Virus record (IMG/VR): IMGVR_UViG_3300045988_119030
Location: 1 to 21,410 of that record
From: a virus
Direction: 5' to 3' (one strand)
DNA: 21,410 nucleotides
In this document: one piece after another, positions 1 through 15,057 of the stretch
How the letters are laid out: every line of letters starts with the position of its first letter
Position numbering within the stretch: the stretch's first letter is position 1
The notes under the pieces: model-generated
Told to the model about the DNA's origin: nothing
Database searches by the model: none
The model's input: only the letters and a program-made list of their open reading frames with translations
Program-made: the position numbers and the translations under genes

Positions 1-30
1 TTTAATTTTCCCCTTTCATTTGATACGTTA

Positions 31-59
31 AGTATAGCAGAATAAAAGGCTTTTGTCAA
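31..59 (-). promoter_or_regulatory. sigma-A type promoter TTGACA-N17-TGcTATACT. Drives a leftward gene whose start lies beyond the left edge of the window.
   Basis: Minus strand reads gggcTTGACAaaagccttttattcTGcTATACT, followed by RBS GAAAGGGGA at the window edge. The -35 sits in a small hairpin GGCTT/AAGCC. Confidence 0.55.
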
Positions 60-64
60 GCCCT

Positions 65-538
65 TTATTCAAGATTTTTGCTTTCCGCGACAAAATATTT
101 TGCTTCATACTGATTGGCGATAGCCTTGACTTTTGCGCTTTCCTTTTGGGTCGCGCAGTAAAAATTGAAAAGCGTATGCTTATCGCTCAATTCAATGTAA
201 GAATGTGGAACGTCATGCAAATCAAAATCAATGGTGTTAGTGTATTTTGTCGGGACGGTAAGCTCGACTTTCCATAATTTATCTTTGCGGGCTTTCTCTT
301 CAATCCATTTGACAAGGTAAACGCCTATGAAATTACAAACGGCAGTAATAGCCATTTTTAACCAAATAGGCATACCGTCCGCGGAAGTCAGCACAATCAC
401 ATAGGAATAAAAACCATAAGTGATAGCGTTGATAAGAGACGCGCTAACTTTTCCGCCGTTGACAGTCAAAATGCTTTTGATAGTTGACAGAATCACATTC
501 ACCGCCGTGCAAAGCGCGAACAGAAGAATTGTATTCAT
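65..538 (-). CDS. early membrane protein. N-terminal ~3 TM helices; the ORF-track start at 547 is GTG and the ATG at 538 is the likelier start
   Basis: Intact ORF. RBS AGGAAAGGGTGA 9 nt upstream of the ATG. Hydrophobic N-terminal segments. Own promoter at 568-596. Confidence 0.6.
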   Translation of the reverse strand: MNTILLFALCTAVNVILSTIKSILTVNGGKVSASLINAITYGFYSYVIVLTSADGMPIWLKMAITAVCNFIGVYLVKWIEEKARKDKLWKVELTVPTKYTNTIDFDLHDVPHSYIELSDKHTLFNFYCATQKESAKVKAIANQYEAKYFVAESKNLE

Positions 539-567
539 TATTATCACCCTTTCCTTTTTCTATTATA

Positions 568-596
568 ATAATATCATATTATAATAGAAATGTCAA
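568..596 (-). promoter_or_regulatory. promoter TTGACA-N17-TGaTATTAT for gene 65-538
   Basis: Minus strand reads ctctctaTTGACAtttctattataatatgaTATTAT. AT-rich UP-like region upstream. Confidence 0.5.
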
Positions 597-762
597 TAGA
601 GAGTTTTTAATTTACTCTTTTAATTTTTCTAATAGGTCATCAGCACATTCATAGCTGATGCTTCTGCGGCCGCACTCATTGGACAAAGGACAACAAGCGC
701 AGTCGTTAAAGGTTTCCGTCCAAGCGCGCAACCACTCAATTAAACATAAAACATTAACTCTT

Positions 763-1107
763 TCACCCATTATTATCATTCTCCTTTACTCGGACAAAAA
801 AGACCTTGTTATAGATTTTCGTTGCTTTGGGGTCAATCCAGAAATACACATTACCGCATACTCGATAGATTTTACAAGTTTCTTCACTAACCTTTTTGAC
901 TTCTTCAAATTTCTCTGGCGTGGTGGGGTGGAAAACCGTCAGTTTGAGGAATATGCAATAGAAAGCCAAAGGAACGAAGCCGATAATCATAGCAATCCAT
1001 GCGAGAACATCAGTTAAAGTGTTTTCCCAATCACACCACTCATCGGTGATTGTAGCGAACGCAATACCCACGCAGAACGCGAGAATCAACCAATACCATG
1101 CCACCAT
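763..1107 (-). CDS. early small membrane protein (2 predicted TM helices, 114 aa)
   Basis: ORF with strong RBS AAAGGGGGAAT-N6-ATG. Hydrophobic stretches. Preferred over the overlapping plus ORF 658-1017 because of the RBS and same-strand operon context. Confidence 0.6.
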   Translation of the reverse strand: MVAWYWLILAFCVGIAFATITDEWCDWENTLTDVLAWIAMIIGFVPLAFYCIFLKLTVFHPTTPEKFEEVKKVSEETCKIYRVCGNVYFWIDPKATKIYNKVFFVRVKENDNNG

Positions 1108-1137
1108 TATTTTATTCCCCCTTTATTTGTTGTATAC

Positions 1138-1166
1138 ATATTACCACATTATAGGATTTTTGTCTA
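1138..1166 (-). promoter_or_regulatory. proximal promoter TAGACA-N17-TGgTAATAT for 763-1107
   Basis: Minus strand reads aaTAGACAaaaatcctataatgtggTAATAT. Confidence 0.4.
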
Positions 1167-1226
1167 TTGGTATTTTACACAAAAATTCGTGCGAAAATTT
1201 GTTGAATCTACCTCTTGACAAAAAAC

Positions 1227-1255
1227 TCGGCGCGCCACAATCGTCCGCGCGCCGA
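1227..1255 (-). promoter_or_regulatory. GC-rich hairpin (TCGGCGCGC-N11-GCGCGCCGA) with a minus-strand U-tract, sitting between tandem promoters in the leader of 763-1107. Terminator or attenuator-like.
   Basis: aaaaaacTCGGCGCGCcacaatcgtccGCGCGCCGAcaatttt. Same AAAACTCGGCGCG lead-in as hairpin 6073-6097. Confidence 0.45.
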
Positions 1256-1257
1256 CA

Positions 1258-1286
1258 ATTTTATCACATTCAAGGAACTTTGTCAA
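1258..1286 (-). promoter_or_regulatory. promoter TTGACA-N17-TAAAAT (distal promoter for 763-1107). Its start site falls at the base of GC hairpin 1227-1255.
   Basis: Minus strand reads cactaTTGACAaagttccttgaatgtgaTAAAAT. Confidence 0.45.
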
Positions 1287-1299
1287 TAGTGAAAGTAAA

Positions 1300-1326
1300 C
1301 AAAAAAAATCACCCAATTTGGGTGAT
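1300..1326 (-). terminator. rho-independent terminator after 1334-1507
   Basis: Stem ATCACCCAA/TTGGGTGAT, then T8 on the minus strand. Confidence 0.65.
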
Positions 1327-1333
1327 TTTTCAT

Positions 1334-1507
1334 TTAGTTTTCTACGGCTTCGAGGTCGACGAGGATGGGAACGAGCTTGTCTTCAAGAAGCGAAACACGT
1401 TCAAGCATTTCGTCCATTTCATCAGGGGAAAAATGCTTCTGAATACCATAGCGCGCCATCGCGCAAACTTTTACAACAACCTCGCTGAGCTTTTCCTTAT
1501 TTTCCAT
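1334..1507 (-). CDS. hypothetical small acidic protein. The ATG at 1507 has RBS GGAGAT-N7; the ORF-track start at 1522 is also possible.
   Basis: ORF plus RBS. The terminator at 1300-1326 follows immediately downstream. Confidence 0.5.
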   Translation of the reverse strand: MENKEKLSEVVVKVCAMARYGIQKHFSPDEMDEMLERVSLLEDKLVPILVDLEAVEN

Positions 1508-1618
1508 TTTTCTTATCTCCATTCAATTTATTTTTTGGAAAGGGTGGCGGTTGTTTCAGGCACAACCGCCAAAGCCATAGGAAAGGGGGAGAAAAACACG
1601 AACAAAAGTTCGGTTTTG

Positions 1619-1858
1619 TCAAGGGATAATCAGTTCTGCGTCATAGACAGGCCGAACCATGCAGGGCGAGCCAAAGCAGTCGAGATTGTAAGTGTCCAAA
1701 TTGAGAGCGTTCCATTCTTCTGCGCCGGTATCTTCATCAACCACAGTCGCGATTTTGATGTAATAGACGTTTCCAGAAGCGGGGTCTTGAAAAATCATAC
1801 CCTCGGGAAGGTCTTCAAATGCAACCATTTTGTTGCTATGCTTAACAGTAATTTTCAT
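1619..1858 (-). CDS. hypothetical protein (~79 aa). The track start at 1867 is GTG; the ATG at 1858 has RBS AAAGGGTGA.
   Basis: ORF. The TGA stop of upstream gene 1864-2217 lies inside this RBS (translational coupling). Confidence 0.55.
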   Translation of the reverse strand: MKITVKHSNKMVAFEDLPEGMIFQDPASGNVYYIKIATVVDEDTGAEEWNALNLDTYNLDCFGSPCMVRPVYDAELIIP

Positions 1859-1863
1859 TTCGT

Positions 1864-2217
1864 TCACCCTTTATAATAGTATTTGTAAGCCCATTCGATA
1901 ATTTCATGGCTTGTGGTAGTCCATTCTTCTTTGGGACTATCGAACTTTTCCGCATACTTTTTGATGTAGTTATTATACTCCATGCGTGCGGTGTCGTATG
2001 CTCCAATAGCCACAATTAAAGCGTGCTTCGCTTCTTCGGCATCAGAGACGGCTTTCTTGCGGTCGGGGCAGTCAGGATAGAGGTTAATCACCCCTACGCG
2101 CGTAATGACTTGCCTTGTCTTTTCATAAAGGCGGTCGCGCGTTTCCCATACTTCATAAAGCTCATCGTCCGCGCGTTTTTCATATGGGTTGAAAGGCTTC
2201 TTTTTCTTACCGAACAT
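1864..2217 (-). CDS. hypothetical protein (~117 aa, starting MFGKKKK...). The long N-terminal extension in the ORF track (to 2469) is probably not translated.
   Basis: RBS AAAGGAG-N10-ATG at 2217. The ATG overlaps the TAA stop of upstream gene 2207-2545 (ATGTTCGGTAA). Confidence 0.5.
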   Translation of the reverse strand: MFGKKKKPFNPYEKRADDELYEVWETRDRLYEKTRQVITRVGVINLYPDCPDRKKAVSDAEEAKHALIVAIGAYDTARMEYNNYIKKYAEKFDSPKEEWTTTSHEIIEWAYKYYYKG

Positions 2218-2545
2218 TTTTCTTTTTCTCCTTTTCTTGCTTATTCCACATTCTATCAAAGAACGCATTTGCGAGGACACGCTTGTAAAGGTTGTCAGGC
2301 ATGGGGCGCTCGCCGTGCTTGTTTCTCCATATCGCGGTGATTTTATCAATATCCGCGATATAGGCTGTAATGAGTGTGCCATCGGAAGCGCTACGAACGA
2401 GAAGAACACCTGTTGTAGTGATAGTGTAGAGAATATCGTCCTCAACGCTGTCGATATATGGTTCGCCAATTCCTACATTATCGTAGATGAAGAGCAGGCG
2501 GTCAATGCGGTCTTGCGTGGCATGTTTTGACATTTTGATAAGCAT
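2207..2545 (-). CDS. hypothetical protein (~112 aa, starting MLIKMSKH...)
   Basis: RBS AAAGAGGT-N7-ATG at 2545. Promoter at 2583-2611 immediately upstream. Confidence 0.55.
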   Translation of the reverse strand: MLIKMSKHATQDRIDRLLFIYDNVGIGEPYIDSVEDDILYTITTTGVLLVRSASDGTLITAYIADIDKITAIWRNKHGERPMPDNLYKRVLANAFFDRMWNKQEKEKKKNVR

Positions 2546-2582
2546 TTGTTTTACCTCTTTCTTTTCCTCTTGGATTGATTGT

Positions 2583-2611
2583 ATTATACCATATGGGGAG
2601 GGGCTTGTCAA
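2583..2611 (-). promoter_or_regulatory. promoter TTGACA-N17-TGgTATAAT for 2207-2545. The -35 lies at the centre of palindrome GGGGCTTGTCAAGCCCC (2600-2616).
   Basis: Minus strand reads aggggcTTGACAagcccctccccatatggTATAAT. Confidence 0.6.
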
Positions 2612-2617
2612 GCCCCT

Positions 2618-2767
2618 TTAATACAATTGTTCCCCATCGTGGTAGCGCTCATATTCCGCTTCAAGGAAGTCGAGAATAGTTTCAAAGTCGTCTGCGTCTG
2701 CGGGGTCGGCAAAGACCTTTTCAAAGACTTCGTTAGTGTGCCAATTGTGAACTCGAACAATATCCAT
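2618..2767 (-). CDS. small acidic protein, 49 aa (MDIVRVHNWHTNEVFEKVFADPADADDFETILDFLEAEYERYHDGEQLY). Not in the ORF track because under 60 aa.
   Basis: RBS AAGAAAGAGGTAAG-N-ATG. Sits between promoter 2798-2826 and the terminator/promoter palindrome at 2600-2616. Confidence 0.5.
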   Translation of the reverse strand: MDIVRVHNWHTNEVFEKVFADPADADDFETILDFLEAEYERYHDGEQLY

Positions 2768-2797
2768 TTTACTTACCTCTTTCTTGATTGTATATGT

Positions 2798-2826
2798 ATT
2801 ATATCATGCGAAAGGGCTTTTGTCAA
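2798..2826 (-). promoter_or_regulatory. promoter TTGACA-N17-TATAAT for small gene 2618-2767. The -35 is inside hairpin AAGGGCTT/AAGCCCTT (2813-2833).
   Basis: Minus strand reads aaagggcTTGACAaaagccctttcgcatgaTATAAT. Confidence 0.6.
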
Positions 2827-2844
2827 GCCCTTTTTCTTATTTTT

Positions 2845-3200
2845 TTATTCTTTTTCTCGAATGGAATAATAAACCTTATTCCCTCGCGGTCTGCGTTTGA
2901 GTTTATGGTCGAGGTATAACTGCATACAATACCAAGTGAATTTGCCGTTGGCATACTCATAGCCATACTTTTTGAATGCCATAAACTGCATTTCAGTCGG
3001 CGTGATAGGTCTGCCCGCCTCATTCAGCAGTTCAAAGACGAGTTTAATCATCTGCTGTTTTTTCCATTCGCGTTCCTCGCGGTCGGCTTTTAAGTCTCTT
3101 TCATACTTGTCGCAAGCGTGTTCCGCGATACTCAGATCAATGGGCGAGAGAGCGCCGACGCGATGGCCTTTTTCAAAACTTCATAAATATCCTTATTCAT
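2845..3200 (-). CDS. hypothetical protein with an apparent -1 frameshift at an A5 run (plus-strand T5 at 3169-3173). The upstream frame gives MNKDIYEVLKK..., the downstream frame continues GHRVGALSPIDL...MIKLVFELL...SIREKE (~118 aa if joined).
   Basis: RBS AAAGGAAAGGGG-N7-ATG at 3200 and promoter at 3231-3259 serve the 5' frame. The long 3' frame has no start or RBS of its own. The two frames join cleanly at G_AAA_AAG. Confidence 0.45.
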
Positions 3201-3230
3201 TGTAGTTCCCCTTTCCTTTACTATACCTGT

Positions 3231-3259
3231 ATTATATCATCTACTTCTGGATTTGTCAA
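3231..3259 (-). promoter_or_regulatory. promoter TTGACA-N17-TATAAT for 2845-3200
   Basis: Minus strand reads aaaagcccTTGACAaatccagaagtagatgaTATAAT. Preceded by terminator 3273-3297. Confidence 0.6.
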
Positions 3260-3272
3260 GGGCTTTTTGGAA

Positions 3273-3297
3273 AAAGAGGGAAAAATTTTCCCTCTTT
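3273..3297 (-). terminator. rho-independent terminator after 3300-3572
   Basis: Stem AGAGGGAAAA/TTTTCCCTCT, then T5. Confidence 0.6.
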
Positions 3298-3299
3298 AT

Positions 3300-3572
3300 T
3301 TATCCCCAATAGACCGAAAGAACGTTGTCAATGTAGCTGGCTTTATAACCATAATTCTGCATGATATCTTTGCAAGCCTGCCTGACCTTCTTGTCATTTA
3401 ATGAAGCAAGATTACACTCGTAAAGTGTTTCGCCCGTTCCTGCCACTCGCTCAATTTCTGGCATGATGTGGTCTTCGATGAACGCCCGCGCGAGGGCATT
3501 ATTTTTAGCTTGAATTTCTTTGCGAACTTCTTCGGCTTTGCGCGTCATTTCATAAGCATATTTAATTTCCAT
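3300..3572 (-). CDS. hypothetical protein (90 aa)
   Basis: ORF. RBS AAAGGAAAGGGAGAT. Promoter at 3605-3633 embedded in a terminator palindrome. Confidence 0.6.
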   Translation of the reverse strand: MEIKYAYEMTRKAEEVRKEIQAKNNALARAFIEDHIMPEIERVAGTGETLYECNLASLNDKKVRQACKDIMQNYGYKASYIDNVLSVYWG

Positions 3573-3604
3573 GTTGTTATCTCCCTTTCCTTTATTGTAT
3601 CTTT

Positions 3605-3633
3605 ATTATAGCATAGAGGGCTTGTTTTGTCAA
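3605..3633 (-). promoter_or_regulatory. promoter TTGACA-N17-TGcTATAAT for 3300-3572. The -35 is inside hairpin AGAGGGCTTG/CAAGCCCTCT (3617-3642).
   Basis: Minus strand reads agagggcTTGACAaaacaagccctctatgcTATAAT. Confidence 0.6.
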
Positions 3634-3651
3634 GCCCTCTATTTAATTTTT

Positions 3652-3960
3652 TTAGCAGTAGGCCAGATTCCCGCGCGCCCAGCCATATACGCTGATTTGA
3701 TTGCACGCCTTGCCGATTTCAAGCGCCTGCTTCTTGGTCTGCACCCTCTTGGACTTGTCAACATAATAAATGCCGTTCGCAAGCCACACACCGCAGTTTC
3801 CGCCGAAGTCCTTAACCGCGTTGATAGCTTCGCGGGCGGTCTTACATTCAACGCCGTTGGTAGCGACCTGCCAGCCGGACTTGTAGTTGACTTTCTTGCC
3901 ATATTTGAGGGTCATGCCGTCGTTTTCAACGAGCTTACGAATAGAACGAATGTTAATCAT
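3652..3960 (-). CDS. hypothetical protein (~102 aa, starting MINIRSIRKL...). The ORF-track N-terminal extension to 4122 is probably 5' leader.
   Basis: RBS AAAGGGAT-N7-ATG at 3960. Two promoters lie upstream in the leader, at 4012-4040 and 4132-4160. Confidence 0.5.
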   Translation of the reverse strand: MINIRSIRKLVENDGMTLKYGKKVNYKSGWQVATNGVECKTAREAINAVKDFGGNCGVWLANGIYYVDKSKRVQTKKQALEIGKACNQISVYGWARGNLAYC

Positions 3961-4011
3961 GTTGTTATCCCTTTCCGGTTTGGTAGGTTTTCCTTCCCTT
4001 ACTGTGATTAT

Positions 4012-4040
4012 AGTATAGCACCGATTCGGGATTCTGTCTA
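4012..4040 (-). promoter_or_regulatory. proximal promoter TAGACA-N17-TGcTATACT for 3652-3960
   Basis: Minus strand reads aaTAGACAgaatcccgaatcggTGcTATACT. Confidence 0.45.
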
Positions 4041-4101
4041 TTGACATTATGCACAAACTTTCGCCATAAAAATTGTTGAACTTGCCTATTGACACAAAAT
4101 T

Positions 4102-4128
4102 CCGGCCGTGCCTGGCGTGCACGGCCGG
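4102..4128 (-). promoter_or_regulatory. GC-rich hairpin (CCGGCCGTGC-N7-GCACGGCCGG) between tandem promoters in the leader of 3652-3960
   Basis: Perfect 10-bp stem. Sits directly after the -10 of promoter 4132-4160. Confidence 0.45.
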
Positions 4129-4131
4129 CCG

Positions 4132-4160
4132 ATTATATCATAAAGTTTTGAAATTGTCAA
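4132..4160 (-). promoter_or_regulatory. distal promoter TTGACA-N17-TgaTATAAT for 3652-3960. GC hairpin 4102-4128 sits immediately downstream.
   Basis: Minus strand reads gcctaTTGACAatttcaaaactttatgaTATAAT. Preceded by terminator AAAAATCTCCCCAAAAATGGGGAGATTTTTTT (4168-4199). Confidence 0.5.
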
Positions 4161-4167
4161 TAGGCAA

Positions 4168-4199
4168 AATATACAAAAAAATCTCCCCATTTTTGGGGA
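4168..4199 (-). terminator. rho-independent terminator after 4225-4473
   Basis: AAAAATCTCCCCAAAAATGGGGAGATTTTTTT. Confidence 0.6.
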
Positions 4200-4224
4200 G
4201 ATTTTTAATTCAAAAAATTTAATT

Positions 4225-4473
4225 TTAGCCATCAACACAAATAATGAGAACGTCATCTTTGGCTTTCAAACCGCTGACCGGCAGTCCCAGCACCCATTCT
4301 TCACTTGCGCCCAAAACATCACCATTCAGAGTCATGCGACCTTTGCGGTCTTTGAGATAGCGACCGCAAGTGTTTTCATTTATCACTTCAATGCCGTTCC
4401 CCTCATAGAACATCAGCGCGCCCTTTACCAGACCAATCACATTTTTAACCATGCCCAAAGTCATTTTTGTCAA
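4225..4473 (-). CDS. hypothetical small beta-rich protein (82 aa). By eye it weakly resembles EutN/CcmL-family barrel proteins (…GASEEWVLGLPVSGLKA…). Unverified.
   Basis: ORF. RBS GAAAGAAG. Promoter at 4514-4542. Terminator at 4564-4597 upstream. Confidence 0.55.
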   Translation of the reverse strand: MTKMTLGMVKNVIGLVKGALMFYEGNGIEVINENTCGRYLKDRKGRMTLNGDVLGASEEWVLGLPVSGLKAKDDVLIICVDG

Positions 4474-4513
4474 CTTCTTTCGTCTTTAATATCGTTCCTC
4501 TTGGAACAATTAT

Positions 4514-4542
4514 AGTATAGCACAAGGTATAACAAAAATCAA
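4514..4542 (-). promoter_or_regulatory. promoter TTGATT-N17-TGcTATACT for 4225-4473
   Basis: Minus strand reads cctaTTGATTtttgttataccttgTGcTATACT. Confidence 0.55.
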
Positions 4543-4563
4543 TAGGTAAAATGTATAAAAAAC

Positions 4564-4597
4564 TCGGCAGGATTTTGTGTATCCTGCCGAGTTTTTT
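4564..4597. terminator. bidirectional intrinsic terminator (A-run, stem CTCGGCAGG/CCTGCCGAG, T7). Terminates 4597-4791 on the minus strand.
   Basis: aaaaaaCTCGGCAGGattttgtgtatCCTGCCGAGttttttt. Confidence 0.65.
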
Positions 4598-4791
4598 TAC
4601 TCTTCCCAACTCTCGATGACTTCACCGGTCATTGCGTCGATAATGTCAACCGAGAGGACGTTGTCCGCGTCCATAAACTTCTGTCCGAGGGCATATGCAT
4701 TTTCCTGTCCCGCGACAGACACTTCATAGCGATAGCGATTATTATCGCCAGCTTTGTAATTGTAGTAGTTAACAGAAACAATAAATAACAT
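4597..4791 (-). CDS. hypothetical protein (64 aa)
   Basis: ORF. RBS AAAGGGGAT-N7-ATG. Promoter at 4822-4849 (TTGACA-N16-TGgTATAAT). Confidence 0.6.
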   Translation of the reverse strand: MLFIVSVNYYNYKAGDNNRYRYEVSVAGQENAYALGQKFMDADNVLSVDIIDAMTGEVIESWEE

Positions 4792-4821
4792 TTGGTTTAT
4801 CCCCTTTCTTTTTATACTCTT

Positions 4822-4849
4822 ATTATACCATAGTTTCGGGATTTGTCAA
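4822..4849 (-). promoter_or_regulatory. promoter TTGACA-N16-TGgTATAAT for 4597-4791
   Basis: Minus strand reads cctaTTGACAaatcccgaaactaTGgTATAAT. Confidence 0.6.
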
Positions 4850-4877
4850 TAGGTTTTTTGAAAAAAGTTTGAAAAAA

Positions 4878-4901
4878 GATTGGAGCATTACTGCTCCAAT
4901 C
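4878..4901 (-). terminator. terminator after 4888-5163. The stop codon is in the loop.
   Basis: GATTGGAGCA-gtaa-TGCTCCAATC, then T6 on the minus strand. Confidence 0.6.
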
Positions 4902-5163
4902 TATTCACCGGATAGTCGATTGGTTTAACCTCAATCGGCGAGTTAGCCCAGTCATAGGAAACGCGGAAAAATTCAGCACAGTGGTAACTAAAATCAGCCC
5001 AGCCAAAAGTCGCAAGATGCGATTTCCAATCTCTGAAATATGGTTCTAATTCTTGCGTGATATAGAGCGTTTCTTCGAGCCGGTCTAAAAGTTTTTCATT
5101 CTTCGCCACATGGAAAACTGCGGTGGTCTTAGTCTCAGCGTCGGTGATGATGTATGTTTTCAT
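4888..5163 (-). CDS. hypothetical protein (~91 aa, starting MKTYIITDAE...)
   Basis: RBS AAAAGGAGC-N7-ATG at 5163. Promoter at 5194-5221. The last codons plus TAA lie in the terminator hairpin at 4878-4901. Confidence 0.55.
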   Translation of the reverse strand: MKTYIITDAETKTTAVFHVAKNEKLLDRLEETLYITQELEPYFRDWKSHLATFGWADFSYHCAEFFRVSYDWANSPIEVKPIDYPVNRLEQ

Positions 5164-5193
5164 TTGAAAAGCTCCTTTTCTTTTGATACTACC

Positions 5194-5221
5194 ATTATAG
5201 CACACTTTTGGAATTTGTCAA
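5194..5221 (-). promoter_or_regulatory. promoter TTGACA-N16-TGcTATAAT for 4888-5163
   Basis: Minus strand reads ccctaTTGACAaattccaaaagtgTGcTATAAT. Confidence 0.6.
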
Positions 5222-5239
5222 TAGGGAAAATGAAAAAAA

Positions 5240-5261
5240 AGAGAAGTTTTTCAACTTCTCT
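5240..5261 (-). terminator. terminator after small peptide gene 5251-5355
   Basis: AGAGAAGTT-gaaa-AACTTCTCT flanked by an A8 / T8 run. Confidence 0.6.
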
Positions 5262-5355
5262 TTTTCAGTTTCTTTTCTGCCCATTCAATGAGTGCGCCCG
5301 CGCCGATTGTCCCAAAGTAAATGAAAAGTAAAACTAAACCGTCATGCGTGCTCAT
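5251..5355 (-). CDS. small hydrophobic peptide, 34 aa (MSTHDGLVLLFIYFGTIGAGALIEWAEKKLKKRS). Single TM helix plus basic tail. Not in the ORF track.
   Basis: RBS GGAGG-N8-ATG. The ATG begins 1 nt after the TAA of upstream gene 5356-5484 (TAAATG). Its TGA stop lies inside the terminator at 5240-5261. Confidence 0.5.
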   Translation of the reverse strand: MSTHDGLVLLFIYFGTIGAGALIEWAEKKLKKRS

Positions 5356-5484
5356 TTAATATTCCTCCACATACTCTGTAAAAACAAGCTCCCAGTCAGG
5401 GCCAAGATCCGGAGCTTTGCAGTATCGCGACTGTCGAATGTCATGCTCATTAGTGATTTTGTTGATAAACTCGAATTCATACAT
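5356..5484 (-). CDS. hypothetical small protein (~42 aa, starting MYEFEFINK...)
   Basis: RBS AAAAGGAGAT-N8-ATG at 5484. Promoter at 5517-5545. Confidence 0.45.
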   Translation of the reverse strand: MYEFEFINKITNEHDIRQSRYCKAPDLGPDWELVFTEYVEEY

Positions 5485-5516
5485 TTTTATTATCTCCTTT
5501 TTTTTACTGTACCAAT

Positions 5517-5545
5517 AGTATAGCAGATAATAGGGCATTTGTCAA
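5517..5545 (-). promoter_or_regulatory. promoter TTGACA-N17-TGcTATACT for 5356-5484 and 5251-5355
   Basis: Minus strand reads ggtaTTGACAaatgccctattatcTGcTATACT. Confidence 0.55.
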
Positions 5546-5562
5546 TACCATTTATAAAAAAA

Positions 5563-5588
5563 ATGTACGAGGTTTAATCCTCGTACAT
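5563..5588 (-). terminator. terminator after 5574-5870. The stop codon is in the loop.
   Basis: ATGTACGAGG-attaaa-CCTCGTACAT, then T8 on the minus strand. Confidence 0.6.
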
Positions 5589-5870
5589 TTCCATTAACGA
5601 TTTGATTTTTTCGATTGTATTTTCAATTTCTTCTACATAGTCGGTTTGCTCCTCACTTGCGCGCATGGCCTGTTCATATGCGTCATAGATAGTTTCGCAC
5701 TGTTCACGGGTGTAGTCTTCTTCTGGAGCGTGTTCCATGGTGACGACTGCTGTCCAAGCGAGCGTTTCTTTATCGTCAAGGTCATCGGCTTTTTCCGCGG
5801 CAGTGGCAAGCTCATGTTCGAGGCGCGTCTTTTCGAGCGAGAGGGTCTTGAGAAAATCCTTATTAGTCAT
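5574..5870 (-). CDS. hypothetical acidic protein (~98 aa, starting MTNKDFLK...)
   Basis: RBS AAAAGGAGAT-N8-ATG at 5870. Promoter at 5903-5930. Stop codon in the loop of terminator 5563-5588. Confidence 0.55.
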   Translation of the reverse strand: MTNKDFLKTLSLEKTRLEHELATAAEKADDLDDKETLAWTAVVTMEHAPEEDYTREQCETIYDAYEQAMRASEEQTDYVEEIENTIEKIKSLMEMYED

Positions 5871-5902
5871 TGTGGTGTATCTCCTTTTCATTTGATGCCT
5901 TT

Positions 5903-5930
5903 ATTATACCACTTCTGGACTGAATGTCAA
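5903..5930 (-). promoter_or_regulatory. promoter TTGACA-N16-TGgTATAAT for 5574-5870
   Basis: Minus strand reads cctaTTGACAttcagtccagaagTGgTATAAT. The iteron cluster lies immediately upstream. Confidence 0.6.
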
Positions 5931-6022
5931 TAGGTTTTTGAAAAAAATATTTATTCATCAGGGCTGTATAAATATTCATGTATAAATATTCATTTTCGGG
6001 TGTATAAAGGCGACTGGCATAA

Positions 6023-6053
6023 TGCACAAAATGGTTTCAAAATTTTTGTGCAA
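6023..6053. promoter_or_regulatory. palindrome TGCACAAAA-N13-TTTTGTGCA. Candidate operator.
   Basis: aaTGCACAAAAtggtttcaaaattTTTTGTGCAat. The same half-site recurs at 7694-7739 and 4050-4057. Confidence 0.5.
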
Positions 6054-6072
6054 TATAACTATTGCAAAACTC

Positions 6073-6097
6073 GGCGCGCTGCGGCCCACAGCGCGCC
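6073..6097 (-). promoter_or_regulatory. GC-rich hairpin (GGCGCGCTG-N7-CAGCGCGCC) with a short minus-strand U-tract, embedded in the iteron/palindrome region
   Basis: aaaactcGGCGCGCTGcggcccaCAGCGCGCCggcc. Confidence 0.4.
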
Positions 6098-6179
6098 GGC
6101 CAAATGCATATGTATGATTATTCATGTATATTCATTGCATATTCATTGTATATTTATTCATACATAATATGCGAAAATA

Positions 6180-6204
6180 GAGAGAGACTTAATAAGCCTC
6201 TCTC
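6180..6204 (-). terminator. hairpin terminator overlapping the stop of 6189-6554
   Basis: GAGAGAG-N11-CTCTCTC, followed on the minus strand by TATTTTCGC. Modest U-tract. Confidence 0.4.
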
Positions 6205-6554
6205 CATACCTTGATTATTTCATCATCTGCTATATCATCTGTGTCATTGTCGTTTATCCACAAAAGCAGAAAATCATTATCATCAATGGTCATATTCTCA
6301 ACTTCCCATTGGTTGCCGCGTTCGTCCAGTAGCGTGATGGTGTTACCATTTCGGGAAGCGACCTCTGCACCGATAAAGCGTATGCTTCCTCTCTCTGTAC
6401 CAGCGCCACACCATTCATCTAATGCGGTGAGGTCATAGGACTGCGGCGCTTCCTCACAGGCTTCCGCGGTTGTGTGGTCGTGGAATGGGCCGAAGAAAGA
6501 CACGGAGAGAATGATGGCAATGGCCATGGTGATGATTTTGGAAACGTTTTTCAT
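6189..6554 (-). CDS. predicted secreted protein (121 aa). The N-terminus looks like a signal peptide (MKNVSKIITMAIAIILSVSFFG…AEA); mature part acidic.
   Basis: ORF. RBS AAGAAAGAGGTAAAAC-ATG. Terminator hairpin at 6180-6204 overlaps the stop. Confidence 0.55.
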   Translation of the reverse strand: MKNVSKIITMAIAIILSVSFFGPFHDHTTAEACEEAPQSYDLTALDEWCGAGTERGSIRFIGAEVASRNGNTITLLDERGNQWEVENMTIDDNDFLLLWINDNDTDDIADDEIIKVWREAY

Positions 6555-6576
6555 TTTGTTTTACCTCTTTCTTACT

Positions 6577-6720
6577 TTATAGGTTAGTAGCGATAGTGAC
6601 AACAGCAATAAGCATGAGCGTGCTTGAGACAGCTTTACCTACATTCTTGCTATCTATGGCATAGACAAAATTATATGCGCTTATAGCAGTAAGCACAATG
6701 ATAGCGGCGATGATAGACAT
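6577..6720 (-). CDS. small membrane protein, 47 aa, 2 hydrophobic segments (MSIIAAIIVLTAISAYNFVYAIDSKNVGKAVSSTLMLIAVVTIATNL). Not in the ORF track.
   Basis: RBS AGAGGGGAG-N8-ATG. Lies between 6751-7224 and 6189-6554 on the same strand. Confidence 0.45.
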   Translation of the reverse strand: MSIIAAIIVLTAISAYNFVYAIDSKNVGKAVSSTLMLIAVVTIATNL

Positions 6721-6750
6721 GGCATATGCTCCCCTCTTTGAGCGAGTGGG

Positions 6751-7224
6751 TTAAACCCACTCGCTGAATAGCTCGCTGATGAAGTCATCGTGGACATCAT
6801 CAGGCAGTTGGTCGATGGTACACTCATAGGTGCTTACCACGGTAAGCGATGAGCCATTTTCAAGGTTCTCGCGCTCAAACTTATCCCGTTCACCAGATGA
6901 AAGAAAAAATGCGGTATAATCGTAAGTGTCTTCTCCATCATTGATGGAATAATCCACCACCTTAAAGCGCATCTTGTTCCAGAGGTTCGCTATGATGGAA
7001 AGATCCATAGCCAGCTCTTCCTCGCGGCGGACAGCTTCGAGAGACGCCTTATACTTGCGCCATGCGGCTACCGTAAAGTCTCTTATGCCGCACCCGATAA
7101 GACAATGGTATTCCTCTAAGTCTTTGATAACCAGTTTGCGTCCCTCGCGCACCATATCCCAAGCATCTTCTGCCATTGCGTTGATGGTGACAGCATCATA
7201 TTTATGCAAGCCCTGAATTTTCAT
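6751..7224 (-). CDS. hypothetical protein (157 aa)
   Basis: ORF. RBS GGAAGGG. The TAA stop sits in the loop of hairpin GCGAGTGGGTT/AACCCACTCGC (6741-6766). Confidence 0.55.
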   Translation of the reverse strand: MKIQGLHKYDAVTINAMAEDAWDMVREGRKLVIKDLEEYHCLIGCGIRDFTVAAWRKYKASLEAVRREEELAMDLSIIANLWNKMRFKVVDYSINDGEDTYDYTAFFLSSGERDKFERENLENGSSLTVVSTYECTIDQLPDDVHDDFISELFSEWV

Positions 7225-7305
7225 TGTATAGCCCTTCCGCGCTTTTTGCGCTATCGTGTTATATGTAGGTATGTTCCCCCATGTGGGGAGTGAGGGCTTG
7301 CGCCC

Positions 7306-7599
7306 TCACTTTGCAATCTTTGTAGTAACGGAAGCCGCACGCGGCGCGCCAGTCTTCTTGTACTTATCAAAGCACTCGGCGTAGAGTTTCGGCGCTTTGT
7401 TGCGGAACATCACCGTGTCGAGCGTTTCAGTAGCCTTGCCACCCTTGCCAACAATAACAGTAAACTTATTGTAAGTAAAGGTAACGCTTTCGCCGTTAGC
7501 TTCCTCGCGGGCTTCTGCCTTGAGCAATTCTAACTGTTCCTTGAGCGCGTCTATCTGCGCGGAAATCTCGCACATTTTTTTAATTTTATTGTTCGTCAT
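7306..7599 (-). CDS. hypothetical protein (97 aa). First gene of the leftward module.
   Basis: ORF. RBS GAGGAT. The TGA stop lies within terminator stem GTGAGGGC/GCCCTCAC (7291-7312). Confidence 0.55.
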   Translation of the reverse strand: MTNNKIKKMCEISAQIDALKEQLELLKAEAREEANGESVTFTYNKFTVIVGKGGKATETLDTVMFRNKAPKLYAECFDKYKKTGAPRAASVTTKIAK

Positions 7600-7693
7600 T
7601 TTTGAATCCTCATTTCATGCAATTTACTGTTCGGTGTTCCGCCGTTCAGCATGGTTACATGGTAGCAGATTCAGCCACGGAATACAATTGACA

Positions 7694-7739
7694 GATTGCA
7701 CAAAGATTTGTTTTGTACGGGGCGGGTTTTTGTGCAATC
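7694..7739. promoter_or_regulatory. palindrome GATTGCACAAA-N24-TTTGTGCAATC. Second copy of the candidate operator.
   Basis: Perfect 11-bp arms. Lies in the 400-bp noncoding region upstream of the first leftward gene. Confidence 0.5.
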
Positions 7740-7777
7740 TACCGCCGGGCGGCACCCTTGCATCATACCTTTGCATT

Positions 7778-7801
7778 TTTATTCACTCAAAAATGAATAA
7801 A
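7778..7801. repeat. inverted repeat TTTATTCA-N8-TGAATAAA (the iteron motif in palindromic arrangement)
   Basis: ttTTTATTCActcaaaaaTGAATAAAac. Confidence 0.45.
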
Positions 7802-7895
7802 ACCTGCATAGAGGGGGGTGTATTTCGGGAAAAATAAATTTTTATTTATCGTTTTTTCTTTTGCCTGGTCAAAACACAATCTAAATCAATTTTCA

Positions 7896-7935
7896 ATTTC
7901 AAATCACGAAATAATTTAAAATTTCAAATTACGAC
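7896..7935. repeat. imperfect direct repeat ATTTCAAAT(C/T)ACGA(A/C) x2, spaced 25 bp
   Basis: ATTTCAAATCACGAA at 7896-7910. ATTTCAAATTACGAC at 7921-7935. Confidence 0.4.
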
Positions 7936-8025
7936 TTCTTTTTTCTACCTCTTTTAGGCTTCTCACCCCACATAAAAGTGTATAATCCAGAAGTAGCAGA
8001 ATATGTAGCTTTCTGCTGATACTTT

Positions 8026-8421
8026 TTAGCAGCTGCTTTCAAGGGGTTGAGGGGTTTCCGCATTTAATTTTTCCTCCATATATTCGATTAATTTATCTTT
8101 ATATTTACAACTATCAATATATCTATTAATAGTATCTATATCATATTTTTCCATTAAGTGCTCTAATACATATTTGTATTTATTTAACTGATATTCTTCT
8201 TGTTCTTCTTTAGTGCTTAATTGGGCCTTTTCCGCGTCTGATAAAGGTTTATAAGTAATTGTTCTTGACCCATTATCCTTTTGCTCAATACGTATTGTTT
8301 TAAATAATTTCCAATCTCTTACAAAAGGATCTTTATCTCTTGTGGCGTTAAAATATTCTTGTTCTAATCTAAATATTACTGCGTCTATCCCTCTTACTTC
8401 AAAAGGCTGGTTCCGCCTCAT
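8026..8421 (-). CDS. hypothetical protein, AT-rich (~131 aa from MRRNQPFEV...). The track start at 8454 is also possible.
   Basis: ORF. Internal RBS GGGAGG-N9-ATG at 8421. Confidence 0.45.
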   Translation of the reverse strand: MRRNQPFEVRGIDAVIFRLEQEYFNATRDKDPFVRDWKLFKTIRIEQKDNGSRTITYKPLSDAEKAQLSTKEEQEEYQLNKYKYVLEHLMEKYDIDTINRYIDSCKYKDKLIEYMEEKLNAETPQPLESSC

Positions 8422-8638
8422 TTTCAATATCCTCCCATTCAAATGTTCCATCATCTAATTCATATACAAATGCCTGTTTATAGAATGATGAAACAATTCC
8501 ATCATTTGCGATTCCTTTTGGACTATTTTTCGCATCATGGAAACAATTATAAACAATTAGTCCTTGCGTTTCATATCGCGAAAAATCTACTGCCCTTCCC
8601 TCAAAATCATAATTATAAAATATGTTTAACAATAGCAT
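8399..8638 (-). CDS. hypothetical protein (79 aa), AT-rich. Overlaps the start of 8026-8421.
   Basis: ORF. A leftward promoter candidate at 8821-8849 gives a long leader. Confidence 0.4.
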   Translation of the reverse strand: MLLLNIFYNYDFEGRAVDFSRYETQGLIVYNCFHDAKNSPKGIANDGIVSSFYKQAFVYELDDGTFEWEDIENEAEPAF

Positions 8639-8677
8639 ACACTCATATTGTGCGATTGGCCATTTATTTAATTCTTT

Positions 8678-8705
8678 TTGCTAATTTGCCATTTTTTGGT
8701 ATAAT
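8678..8705 (+). promoter_or_regulatory. candidate rightward promoter TTGCTA-N16-TGgTATAAT upstream of a 10-codon ORF (8746-8778) with RBS AAAGGAG
   Basis: Plus strand reads tttTTGCTAatttgccatttttTGgTATAAT. Confidence 0.3.
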
Positions 8706-8820
8706 ACCCAAAAGGCTTTTCTATATAACCATAAAAAAAGGAGTGATGCTACTAATGCACAACTCAATAATACAATAAAAATAATTTCCATAAATACTCT
8801 TTTTCTTTTTTCTTATAATA

Positions 8821-8849
8821 ATAATAAAATAAAAAATAAGAAATGTCAA
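8821..8849 (-). promoter_or_regulatory. candidate leftward promoter TTGACA-N17-TATTAT for 8399-8638 / 8026-8421. Divergent from the rightward promoter.
   Basis: Minus strand reads cgacTTGACAtttcttattttttatttTATTAT. Long AT-rich leader. Confidence 0.35.
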
Positions 8850-8931
8850 GTCGTGGAGCGTAATTGGGCAAAAGTTATTTGTTTTGTTAAAAAAATTTTT
8901 AAATATAAAAAGAAAAAATTTTAAATGAAAC

Positions 8932-8960
8932 TTGACAAAAAAAATTTTTTCGAGTATAAT
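8932..8960 (+). promoter_or_regulatory. consensus promoter TTGACA-N17-TATAAT for the first rightward gene (8985-10040)
   Basis: Plus strand reads aaacTTGACAaaaaaaattttttcgagTATAAT. GGAGG RBS and ATG 25 nt downstream. A-rich upstream. Confidence 0.6.
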
Positions 8961-8984
8961 ATAAATATAGACTGGAGGTAAAAA

Positions 8985-10040
8985 ATGATAAAACTTGATT
9001 ATTCTTTACAAACTCCAGAAGAAAGAAATCAATTAGTCGAACAAATTTTGGCTGATAATCCAGATCCGCCTGAAAAGTATTTAGAAATTTTAGCAGACTA
9101 TTTGGTTCTTTGTATGGAGAAACAAGAAAAAAAGGAGAAAAAATTATTAACTGATAATCGTATGGCTACAGTTAATAAGCGTGAGACTTCTTTTGAAGGT
9201 CTTGTTTCCCAACTCGAAAATGGCGAAGATGGAATTTATAATTTAATTACAGATAATAGAAATACAATATTTCAACCACATATTACAATTACAAAAAAAG
9301 ATTTAGAAGAGATACCAAGTTTAAATTAGTTAAGAGAAGCCATTAATGTTTGGGAGGCTAAATTAAAAGTAACAGAAGGAAAAGATGCTTTTGTTATTAA
9401 AAAGGCTCTTATTGAAATGCGTAAAGATTAGTATGTTATGAAAAATGCTTATCGTCGTCCAATAGTGCCTACAAAATTAACCAGATCAAAGTCTTATATT
9501 CCATTAGATGATAAAACATTTATTTTTGATGATGATGGTTTTCCCATTCCTGATGGAATTAGTTTATTAAGACCTGAAATATGTTCTGCGGTTTTATGTA
9601 ATTATTCCCGACTAAAACAAGATAGTTGGGGCGAATATGATAAAGATTTATGGTATTTAATGGAGGATTTTGATAAGCTTTGTGATAAAGCCTTAGCTAA
9701 TTATCCTCTTTATGATAGAATCGTTGAATATAAAATTGATGGTTTACAAAATATTGACATTCAAGAGAAAATACAAATGGAATTTGGTATTAAACATAGT
9801 CTTGAATATATTTCAAGTTTATGGCGTAATAAAATTCCAAAATTAATTGCTTCGACTGCGGAAGATGAATATTTAGATAATTATTATTTAAATGTTGAAA
9901 AAGGTAAATATAAAAAATGTAGTCGTTGTGGTAAAATAAAATTAGCTCATAATAAATATTTTAGTAAAAATAAAACAAGTAAAGATGGCTTTTATAGTAT
10001 TTGTAAAAGTTGTCGAAATTCTAAGGCCAAAAAATCTTAA
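8985..10040 (+). CDS. zinc-ribbon protein (352 aa if TAG is read through). Two in-frame TAGs at 9327-9329 and 9432-9434. C-terminal CxxC…CxxC motif. Function unknown.
   Basis: Single frame 8985-10040, interrupted only by TAG and ending in TAA. Consensus promoter at 8932-8960. RBS GGAGG-N6-ATG. Confidence 0.6.
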
Positions 10041-10089
10041 TGTTGTCCTTTTGTTTATAATAAATAGTTGAAAGGAGAATATTTTATTT

Positions 10090-13016: not shown

Positions 13017-13028
13017 GGAGGGTGGAAA

Positions 13029-13385
13029 ATGCGTGCTTCAAGAGGAGAAATTAAAATTGAAGAAATCTTAGAAGAAGCAGGACTACCTTTTAAAATGGAA
13101 TATATTTTTCCAGATTTAAAAAGCCCAAGCGGGCGTCCGCTTCGTTTTGATTTTGTTATATTTGATGATGATGGAAAAATTGATTTCATTATTGAGTATT
13201 AGGGAAAATAGCATTATGAAGCCAGTTCTAAATTTGGTGGAAAACGCGGTTTATACCAGTAGCAATATAATGATAATCAAAAAAGACGTTTTTGCGCTTT
13301 ACATGATTTTAGATTAATAGAGATTCCATATACCGACGAAAACCTTATTTCTTATGATTATATAATGAAATTAGCAGGTTATTAA
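13029..13385 (+). CDS. Vsr/DUF559-like endonuclease-fold protein (118 aa; restriction-endonuclease-like fold). Probably a free-standing homing-type endonuclease. Three in-frame TAGs.
   Basis: RBS AAGGAGGG-N6-ATG. Motif RPLRFDFVIF…IDFIIEY*GK*HY resembles the DUF559 …DF…iE.DG.QH signature. This is from memory, not a search. Confidence 0.5.
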
Positions 13386-13398
13386 AGGAGGTGGAACT

Positions 13399-15048: not shown

Positions 15049-15057
15049 GGAGGATTT

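Follow-up and report, generated by a model that had tools for sequence, protein, structure and literature searches.

Partial recoding of phage genomes, in which an early region remains compatible with the standard genetic code, has already been described (Borges et al., 10.1101/2021.08.26.457843; Yutin et al., PMC7886860; Peters et al., PMC9523058). In the code-15 crAss-like phages and the clades of Borges et al., TAG is read as glutamine (Gln) through a phage suppressor tRNA in only a part of the genome, the early region remains readable in the standard code, which close relatives use throughout, the GC content is low, and TAA is the main stop codon. The same traits characterize the locus analyzed here, a stretch of 21,410 nucleotides (nt) from IMG/VR record IMGVR_UViG_3300045988_119030 (positions 1 to 21,410), hereafter called the window, which spans the divergent junction between the early and late modules of an SPbeta-like phage. 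Its source is a gut phage of ~190 kb that uses code 15 (TAG = Gln) for part of its genome. Unlike the crAss-like phages, it represents an SPbeta-like lineage with Bacillota-type Shine-Dalgarno sites and promoters, and a series of consensus sigma-A promoters makes its early class directly recognizable. Furthermore, capsid proteins of crAss-like phages were among those that proteomics detected only with code-15 predictions (PMC9523058), whereas the abundant virion proteins are almost TAG-free here. The preprint of Borges et al. (10.1101/2021.08.26.457843) does not contain the words "capsid," "highly expressed," or "sigma" and focuses on lysis genes, none of which lies in this window.

TAG recoding in this phage group has also been reported (Babkin 2023, PMC10607447). 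There, phAss-1 (OQ749652), from the human gut, has recoded TAG to Gln in its terminase, portal, and tail genes. It is filed under "code 15 clade" and carries several tRNA(CUA) genes, one of them of the same long type (90 to 91 nt) as here, but its genome measures 136 kb compared to ~190 kb here. The report's Results and Discussion sections list TAG-containing open reading frames (ORFs) and do not analyze early and late promoter classes or TAG avoidance in abundant proteins. The report also states that phAss-1 lacks an aminoacyl-tRNA synthetase, so that accessory code-change genes, such as those for a synthetase or release factor 2, are not required of a code-15 phage, and that Enterococcus phage EF1 uses the standard code. 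In this respect, SPbeta and the EF1-type phages differ from the phage of the window.

An earlier note, made from the letters of this DNA, had proposed that the leftward early genes can be translated in the code of the host and the rightward late genes only once TAG is suppressed. Our analysis bears out most of the underlying observation, with a correction to the first leftward gene, and supports this interpretation: each part of it that could be tested passed, while the timing of expression, incomplete suppression, and any regulatory role are what we infer from the sequence. The reading that we rank first, at a probability of about 0.65, is a code-switch programme in which early genes are free of TAG, late genes bear it, and the genes of abundant proteins stay free of it.

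Positions 1 to 10537 of the window are 99.99% identical to two assembly contigs of ~190.6 kb (L082 and L084), and megablast with the whole window as query found no nucleotide match among 50,697 phage records. A contig of 190,642 bp (ENA ERZ27260930, k119_3975) is 99.99% identical to the window over 10.5 kb. Both the structural homologues and the head and tail gene order of the SPbeta-like, phAss-1-related group are present. Indeed, public calls on near-identical contigs give the Pfam families YonG_N, YonD_N, YonB, YomW, YomV, and YomU_Tube, followed by the tape measure, and the order in SPbeta (YonG, terminase, portal, YonD, YonB, YomW, YomV, YomU tube protein, tape measure) is the same. The capsid-like protein shares 50% identity with its phAss-1 counterpart and 39% with that of EF1. 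In a blastn comparison with the phAss-1 locus, only 3% of the late module was covered. Since there is no match at the nucleotide level, the two phages belong to different genera, and ours lies outside the proposed genus Phassvirus, for which nucleotide identity of ~80% or higher is required.

The late module is read with TAG as glutamine

With TAG as a sense codon, positions 8982 to 21318 of the plus strand form 12 contiguous ORFs; under the standard code, or with TGA instead as a sense codon, this stretch remains fragmented. The plus-strand ORFs of 100 codons or more span 11,460 nt under the standard code, 15,576 nt if TGA is sense, and 19,710 nt if TAG is. The ORFs restored by sense TAG match terminase, portal, and other families from end to end. 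Codes with TGA or TAA as sense were rejected, as the late module does not tile under either. The genes are as follows, with in-frame TAGs counted from the gene starts chosen in this analysis:

8985 to 10040, plus strand: sigma-like gene, 351 amino acids (aa), 2 TAG, at codons 115 (9327 to 9329) and 149 (9429 to 9431)
10090 to 11277, plus strand: p395, YonG_N family, 395 aa, 9 TAG
11277 to 13016, plus strand: large terminase (TerL), 579 aa, 8 TAG
13029 to 13385, plus strand: homing endonuclease, 118 aa, 3 TAG
13399 to 15048, plus strand: portal (phrog_2739, E = 4.6e-82), 549 aa from a TTG start, 10 TAG
15058 to 16641, plus strand: p527, YonD-type gene, 527 aa, N-terminal domain and coiled-coil tail, 3 TAG
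16659 to 17576, plus strand: p305, head-module gene, 305 aa, 0 TAG; Gln encoded by 7 CAA and 7 CAG
17594 to 18700, plus strand: putative major capsid protein (MCP), YonB family, 368 aa, 0 TAG; Gln encoded by 2 CAA and 10 CAG
18787 to 19380, plus strand: p197, 197 aa, 0 TAG
19400 to 19972, plus strand: p190, 3 TAG
19929 to 20270, plus strand: p113, 4 TAG
20254 to 21318, plus strand: p354, 9 TAG

The terminase and the portal gene thus carry 8 and 10 TAGs and the last three late genes, p190, p113, and p354, carry 3, 4, and 9, in line with the frequent TAGs that the earlier note had seen in terminase, portal, and tail genes. Its description of TAG as a rare reassigned codon does not hold, since TAG makes up 37% (51) of the 138 Gln codons of the nine TAG-bearing late genes, next to 58% CAA and 5% CAG. 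None of the 37 genes of the window ends in TAG (29 TAA, 8 TGA). The homing endonuclease gene, which is of the mobile-element type, lies between terminase and portal, is present in 76 related loci, and has here adopted the code of the phage.

Sequence comparison identifies the amino acid as Gln. In the standard-code relatives L062 and L067, 47 of the 73 residues aligned to TAGs of the window are Gln, the remainder being mostly Glu, Asp, and Lys, and among relatives that are at least 95% identical, TAG takes part in 68 codon differences, in 63 of which it alternates with CAG (35) or CAA (28).

No tRNA was detected in the window, in agreement with the earlier note, which saw no suppressor tRNA there. 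An Rfam scan of the window and two tRNA loci gave nothing beyond tRNAs. The suppressor tRNA proposed for a check is present elsewhere in the species: in IMG/VR, a search pattern derived from the suppressor tRNAs of phAss-1 matched four contigs of the same species, each with a tRNA(CUA) of 90 nt, identical but for one base. The late-module proteins of these contigs are ~99% identical to those of the window. The copies called by ARAGORN are as follows:

L120, 9078 to 9167: tRNA(CUA)
L139, 3369 to 3458: tRNA(CUA)
L117, 7965 to 8054: tRNA(CUA)
L173, 1688 to 1777: tRNA(CUA)

Two of the copies reached Rfam tRNA scores of 56 to 58 bits. By contig coordinates, the gene belongs to a dispersed tRNA array on the strand of the early genes, at a distance of 53 to 64 kb to the left of the sigma-like gene and with a perfect sigma-A promoter 1.6 to 2 kb upstream. 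It has an extra arm of ~16 nt, like one of three phAss-1 suppressors, although TAG aligns with Gln. Adjoining the tRNA array, a weak tRNA-like ARAGORN call with anticodon TCA, an opal reader (L120, 7726 to 7805), folds poorly (-14.9 kcal/mol) and is not reported by Rfam; TGA is a stop codon in this phage.

TAG is nearly excluded from the capsid genes

In p305, the putative MCP, and p197, none of the 31 Gln codons is TAG and 58% are CAG, which differs significantly from the nine other late genes (Fisher p = 5e-6). Because these three genes had been picked out by the earlier note after inspection, we also ran unselected tests over all 12 late genes. TAG use was heterogeneous (chi-square p = 0.004, permutation p = 0.004), so that the uniform TAG density named in the earlier note as evidence against its claim is not what is found. 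The same note had listed a fourth TAG-free region, 15601 to 16641; this is no gene of its own but the TAG-free tail of the 527-aa gene.

We then compared codon usage in 13 recoded lineages and in standard-code relatives; here and in all counts over relatives, the lineages are not phylogenetically independent.

p305, MCP, and p197: in recoded lineages, TAG 1 to 4% of Gln codons, 0.5 to 1.6 TAG per 1000 codons, CAG 36 to 76%; in standard-code relatives, CAG 88 to 89% of Gln codons
Sigma-like gene, p395, TerL, endonuclease, portal, and p190: in recoded lineages, TAG 28 to 41% of Gln codons, 12 to 23 TAG per 1000 codons, CAG 0 to 12%; in standard-code relatives, CAG 14 to 46% of Gln codons
p527 (YonD): in recoded lineages, TAG 21% of Gln codons, 6.3 TAG per 1000 codons, CAG 23%; in standard-code relatives, CAG 57% of Gln codons

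The claim that the most expressed capsid genes avoid TAG is thus borne out throughout the 13 lineages, where these genes are near TAG-free, and the corresponding prediction for the tail tube, whose gene lies outside the window, was correct. Three variants of this gene contained 0 TAG, while YomV contained 6 to 9, a neighbour of 314 to 368 aa 13 to 15, and the first ~1000 codons of the tape measure 18 to 39. TAG has displaced CAG where codon preference is weak and was kept out where it is strong.

This codon pattern also lends itself to an explanation without any function in timing. With a suppressor present, AT-biased C-to-T change would convert CAG to TAG where selection on codons is weak, genes with a strong preference for CAG (those of abundant virion proteins and strong early genes) would resist, and the contrast would be one of codon bias. 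The 88 to 89% CAG already found in the capsid genes of standard-code relatives is in good agreement with such a by-product of drift, as are the replacement of CAG rather than CAA by TAG and the TAG/CAG polymorphism between near-identical genomes. The early island presented below, with 0 TAG among 31 Gln codons, and the sigma-like gene, which retains TAGs in every recoded lineage examined, often at invariant Gln sites, speak against it. In addition, TAG-bearing genes would give no full-length protein before the suppressor is present, so that gating exists whether selected or not. We consider drift as the whole explanation possible, at odds well below even.

The capsid assignment itself relies on a match to PF27364 (YonB) and a weak tblastn match to the annotated major capsid protein of Bacillus phage vB_BsuS_PJN02. 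An NCBIfam HK97-fold model matched weakly (E = 4e-4, below the curated cut-off), and neither a sequence nor a profile match was found in PDB. An AlphaFold model of the protein was unusable (predicted local distance difference test score [pLDDT], 38), the alignment being shallow (at least 87% identity). In the assembly collection, the index lists this exact capsid protein in 1068 blocks. The capsid gene is directly followed by this element:

18719 to 18751, plus strand: terminator-like hairpin with U-run, -22.5 kcal/mol, z score -3.5

This hairpin, missed by the consensus terminator scan owing to a bulge in its stem, would be compatible with high levels of capsid mRNA.

The leftward early island is free of TAG

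To define the leftward gene set, public calls on L082, the identical contig, were combined with the positions of promoters and ribosome-binding sites. The set comprises 25 genes in the window, ending in 18 TAA, 7 TGA, and 0 TAG, which agrees with the roughly 24 leftward genes without TAG stops counted in the earlier note.

65 to 8063, minus strand: early-gene island, 23 genes of 22 to 157 aa, GC content at third codon positions (GC3) ~0.51, 0 in-frame TAG, TAA or TGA stops
8026 to 8421, minus strand: AT-rich leftward gene, 131 aa, GC3 0.24, 0 TAG
8399 to 8791, minus strand: first leftward gene, 130 aa, hydrophobic N terminus, GC3 0.22, one TAG
8681 to 8683, minus strand: in-frame TAG at codon 37 of 8399 to 8791

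The 1849 codons of the 23 island genes encode Gln by 12 CAA and 19 CAG. At the rate of the late genes, the absence of TAG among these 31 codons has a probability of ~6e-7, and the positional base composition of all 25 leftward genes predicts ~33 TAGs where 1 was found. The array extends 9.3 kb further to the left in L082, giving 40 genes over ~18 kb with 1 sense TAG and 0 TAG stops. The earlier note had concluded that sense TAGs are absent because all leftward genes are intact in the standard code. This argument is circular, and 8399 to 8791 does contain a TAG; below ~8000, the conclusion is nevertheless true. There, reading TAG as sense merges no leftward ORFs, and the absence of sense TAGs is therefore not a mere effect of ORF calling.

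The lack of TAG stops is on its own weak evidence, as ~7% (26/356) of leftward ORF families in recoded relatives and ~11% (6/54) in standard-code relatives end in TAG, so that the probability of finding none in 25 to 40 genes is ~0.01 to 0.16. In several of the TAG-terminated families of recoded relatives, a second stop follows 1 to 5 codons past the TAG. Family-wide, TAG accounts for 9% of Gln codons in high-GC3 early-module ORFs, which is an upper bound only, since this count used TAG-as-sense ORFs, prone to false 5' and 3' extensions; the same method would report 3 TAG ORFs in the left module of the window, where the true number is 1. Two leftward ORFs with a TAG stop (1164 to 1316 and 4086 to 4256) were rejected as genes because they lie over terminator or promoter DNA and are absent from the public calls. 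Plus-strand ORFs of the left module, such as 1019 to 1876 (285 aa), were rejected as antisense shadows on account of the strand skews and of translations that are rich in Leu, Phe, Ser, and Cys and poor in charge.

The one sense TAG of the leftward genes of the window explains where the earlier note ended its early module. The gene that it gave as 8399 to 8638 is a fragment downstream of the TAG at 8681 to 8683, the correct gene being 8399 to 8791, and its end coordinate 8640 is a product of this TAG. Orthologues with 34 to 36% identity keep the N-terminal segment in a single ORF, and the public call also gives 130 aa. The relatives L015 and L017 have a Gln codon at the site, and L006 and L002 have TAGs at other Gln sites of the orthologue. 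An in-frame TAG in an early gene, which the note had named as evidence against its claim, is thus formally present once, 41 nt outside the span that it described, and not below 8063. Since both 8026 to 8421 and 8399 to 8791 have a late-like GC3 (0.22 to 0.24), the compositional boundary lies near 8000 and not at the strand switch, and the TAG-free class is the high-GC3 early island, set by codon usage and promoter type rather than by strand. In many recoded lineages (L004 to L081), the first 1 to 2.5 kb leftward of the sigma-like gene likewise hold AT-rich genes (GC3 0.13 to 0.31) with TAGs, and the high-GC3 island begins beyond them.

Sigma-A promoters mark a predicted early class

The minus strand of 1 to 8850 contains eight perfect matches to TTGACA-16/17 nt-TATAAT, all with an extended -10 TG, and five more with 11 of 12 positions, compared to a chance expectation for perfect matches of ~0.003 in 9.1 kb by our own estimate. 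The promoters of the region are as follows:

59 to 31, 596 to 568, 1286 to 1258, 2611 to 2583, 2826 to 2798, and 3259 to 3231, minus strand: strong sigma-A promoters 1 to 6 (TTGACA, 16 to 17 nt, TGnTATAAT)
3633 to 3605, 4160 to 4132, 4849 to 4822, 5221 to 5194, 5545 to 5517, and 5930 to 5903, minus strand: strong sigma-A promoters 7 to 12
8821 to 8849, minus strand: leftward promoter of the divergent pair (TTGACA, 17 nt, TATTAT; 11 of 12)
8932 to 8960, plus strand: perfect rightward sigma-A promoter (TTGACA, 17 nt, TATAAT), 24 nt upstream of the sigma-like gene

Most leftward promoters are preceded by a terminator hairpin and followed after ~20 nt by a strong Shine-Dalgarno sequence and start codon. 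The next 9.4 kb of L082 add 12 perfect and 9 further 11-of-12 matches, and all but one of these 21 lie on the strand of the early genes. Within the late module, no perfect plus-strand sigma-A match was found and the total number of matches was at chance (63 found, 56.9 expected). As judged from sequence, this layout is strong evidence for a gene class that would be transcribed by the host polymerase.

The early units are near-identical cassettes consisting of a T-run terminator hairpin, TTGACA-17-TGnTATAAT, a leader of ~20 nt, an AGGAG-type ribosome-binding site, and one to three small genes (31 to 5930 of the window; 10400 to 19819 of L082). In four of them (59 to 31, 2611 to 2583, 2826 to 2798, and 3633 to 3605), the -35 hexamer lies inside the hairpin GGGCTTGACAAAAGCCC. 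Two consensus promoters on the minus strand run at once into a GC-rich hairpin with U-run (4102 to 4160 and ~1227 to 1286). The hairpin 4128 to 4102 (-23.3 kcal/mol, z score -3.1) is stronger than that at 1255 to 1227 (z score -1.7), and both could give rise to ~40-nt transcripts or act as attenuators ahead of the genes 3652 to 3960 and 763 to 1107.

The composition and turnover of the left module suggest a second explanation for its lack of TAG. Only 45 to 89% of the module aligns between genomes with ~99% identical late genes (window versus L004 to L018 and L043), and more distant relatives share none of it at the nucleotide level; the module is thus a fast-turnover accessory island, mosaic between genomes. 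Its genes could derive from a pool shared with standard-code phages and be TAG-free by ancestry, not timing. Because the island is mosaic, ancestry and the code-neutrality of exchangeable genes may indeed contribute to the absence of TAG. The gap in composition (GC 0.40 to 0.45 in the left module versus 0.28 to 0.36 in the late module; GC3 0.5 versus 0.2) points in the same direction, as do the repeated promoter-terminator cassettes, which could serve as recombination joints for gene shuffling between genomes, and the near absence of PHROG families. Of 20 early proteins compared with PHROG, 18 had no family and the other two matched families of unknown function; the sole early genes with a family assignment, encoding an AbrB/MazE-type DNA-binding protein (PF04014) and a T5orf172-domain protein, lie at 10539 to 10991 and 13293 to 13607 of L082. 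However, consensus sigma-A promoters and strong ribosome-binding sites are present in nearly every unit of the island, which is the mark of an early class regardless of where its genes came from. Furthermore, 0 TAG stops in 40 genes, compared to ~11% in standard-code relatives, suggests adaptation to a TAG-suppressing cell, and most of the recoded relatives examined show a GC gap between the modules. Among the relatives, this gap is ~0.01 to 0.04 in the standard-code genomes examined and ~0.08 in the window and its close recoded relatives. We therefore regard foreign ancestry as unlikely to account for the pattern by itself, though still worth weighing.

A chimeric assembly or a prophage-host junction, with TAG contrasting between two organisms, would also produce a sharp change of GC and GC3 near 8000 and a strand switch at ~8.8 to 8.9 kb. 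Yet more than 15 independent contigs and assemblies of 100 to 200 kb contain this junction, flanked by the same genes, the composition changes ~800 nt inside the leftward block and not at the strand switch, and the left genes are small, promoter-dense, and phage-early-like, with no bacterial housekeeping content. Such an artefact is very improbable.

The YonD-type gene contains a candidate nested scaffold

The three TAGs of the YonD-type gene are located at codons 108, 131, and 167, all in its N-terminal part. At codon 227, AAGGAGG is followed 6 to 9 nt further on by GTG or ATG in all 33 diverged orthologues listed (53 to 92% identity), and this arrangement is retained even where the YonD peptide shifts from KEGG to NKEE. 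Given a GC3 of ~0.2, GTG would be an unexpected Val codon, which points to an internal start.

15736 to 16641, plus strand: candidate nested scaffold product, 301 aa, TAG-free, from an in-frame GTG after AAGGAGG

Such a start would probably yield a scaffold-type product of 301 aa. Over 12 recoded lineages, TAG accounts for 40 of 93 Gln codons (43%) upstream of the internal start and for 9 of 98 (9%) downstream of it (Fisher p = 6e-8, with lineages that are not fully independent). In phage lambda, C and Nu3 are a nested protease/scaffold gene with an in-frame internal start inside a head-assembly gene. The likeness would be an abundant C-terminal scaffold product beside a rarer full-length protein; unlike here, where the full-length form would require TAG suppression, the lambda system operates without it.

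The sigma-like gene carries TAG at invariant glutamines

The sigma-like gene matches phrog_5767 "sigma factor" (E = 9e-55), and its protein gave no match to Pfam, NCBIfam, or PDB sequences. An AlphaFold model was of moderate confidence (pLDDT 65), and a fold search with it was suggestive, with one specific match to a sigma-H domain. On the PHROG label and this fold match, we regard the gene as encoding a putative sigma factor. A perfect copy of its promoter is found in 41 of 80 related loci. The two TAGs of the window occupy the invariant Gln positions Q115 and Q149, and recoded relatives have 1 to 7 TAGs in the gene, often at the invariant positions Q97, Q115, Q149, and Q255. No terminator was found between the sigma-like gene and the next gene, so that the late operon could be driven by read-through or by a phage-specific promoter. 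In SPbeta, late transcription depends on the YonO polymerase.

These features led us to consider that the TAG codons form a two-layer control circuit, a timer and a dosage device, rather than a passive by-product. As a timer, the sigma-like gene would be transcribed early from its host sigma-A promoter and its protein finished only once tRNA(CUA) accumulates, which would couple the onset of late transcription to the change of code. As for dosage, each TAG would cut the yield multiplicatively, so that the TAG load would set the amounts of virion proteins, with zero TAG in the capsid, nested scaffold, and tail tube and 12 to 40 per 1000 codons in portal, terminase, tape measure, and assembly proteins. 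YonD would combine both in one frame, as a TAG-gated full-length form and a TAG-free scaffold from the conserved internal start. We put this circuit forward tentatively and would not bet on it.

Relatives and possible hosts

IMG/VR contains 475 relatives of the sigma-like gene. Within this one family, standard-code relatives without TAG (L062, L065 to L068, L072) and lightly recoded ones with few TAGs (L030, L033, L048) share 70 to 78% identity of the sigma-like protein. Searches of bacterial genome collections for a host returned only metagenome bins with inconsistent labels. In one of them (L192; CAMELE010000001.1, a contig of 163,874 bp), the capsid protein is 98% identical to that of the window; this species-representative genome is labelled "uncultured Mollicutes bacterium" and its contig is probably the phage of the window binned as a bacterium. 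Other matches are labelled Clostridium, Lachnospiraceae, Muribaculaceae, and Erysipelotrichaceae.

A proposed code switch between early and late genes

The code-switch programme would proceed as follows. On entry, host RNA polymerase with sigma-A would transcribe the long leftward array of small genes, which, being TAG-free and rich in GC3 and CAG, would be translatable in the unmodified host. The phage tRNA(CUA), encoded further along the leftward arm, would accumulate, and ribosomes would come to read TAG as Gln. Only after this switch would the full-length sigma-like regulator, the terminase, the portal, the tail assembly proteins, and the tape measure be made. The genes of abundant proteins (the capsid protein, the adjacent p305 and p197, the scaffold portion of YonD, and the tail tube) would keep CAG and exclude TAG, competition between suppressor and release factor presumably making each TAG costly, and C-to-T change would have replaced most CAG by TAG where codon selection is weak.

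Several observations weigh against this programme. The leftward gene 8399 to 8791, although driven by sigma-A, contains a TAG, and leftward genes adjoining the tRNA array contain them as well. The genes around tRNA(CUA) have a low GC3 and include, for example, a 497-aa ORF with 7 TAGs; TAG use is therefore not restricted to the rightward arm, and a simple rule of strand or timing fails. Moreover, the early island is a distinct codon-usage class in a mosaic region, and ancestry or codon bias could explain its lack of TAG. Nor is exclusion from the capsid genes absolute: L039 has 2 TAGs in its MCP, L029 has 2 in p305 and 2 in p197, and in a few near-identical genomes, single TAGs occur at CAG sites of MCP and p305 without spreading. 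Within late genes, TAG positions are uniform (Kolmogorov-Smirnov p = 0.94), and a test for 5' bias found none, which is the expectation for drift, unlike that for purpose-built gates. Because of this uniformity and the ongoing turnover between TAG and CAG, much of the TAG load looks like tolerated drift. The single TAGs in MCP and p305, the uniform positions, and the gain of a TAG by the AT-rich 8399 to 8791 despite its sigma-A promoter all add to the case for drift set out above. Finally, the tRNA(CUA) was read from same-species contigs and not from the window's own contig. Nevertheless, the code switch, the by-product of drift, and the ancestry of the island are mutually compatible, and the code-switch programme remains the reading that we rank first.

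In the literature searched, we found no description of TAG being all but absent from the most abundant virion proteins owing to a prior preference for CAG, of a split of TAG use within YonD, or of a regulator gene that is driven by a host promoter and carries TAGs. These are refinements within a known kind of system and not a new kind.

For annotation, the consequence is that the standard code fragments the late genes of this phage and truncates one of its early genes. In most code-switching phages, the assignment of genes to early and late classes is a guess based on their functions. Here, an array of host promoters reveals the early class, so that the code boundary can be compared directly with a promoter-defined early class. 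The findings also lead to predictions, namely, that the TAG-free proteins are abundant, that the internal scaffold start exists, and that the sigma-like regulator depends on the suppressor tRNA. Overall, a family with standard-code, lightly recoded, and heavily recoded relatives represents a natural series for how recoding spreads.

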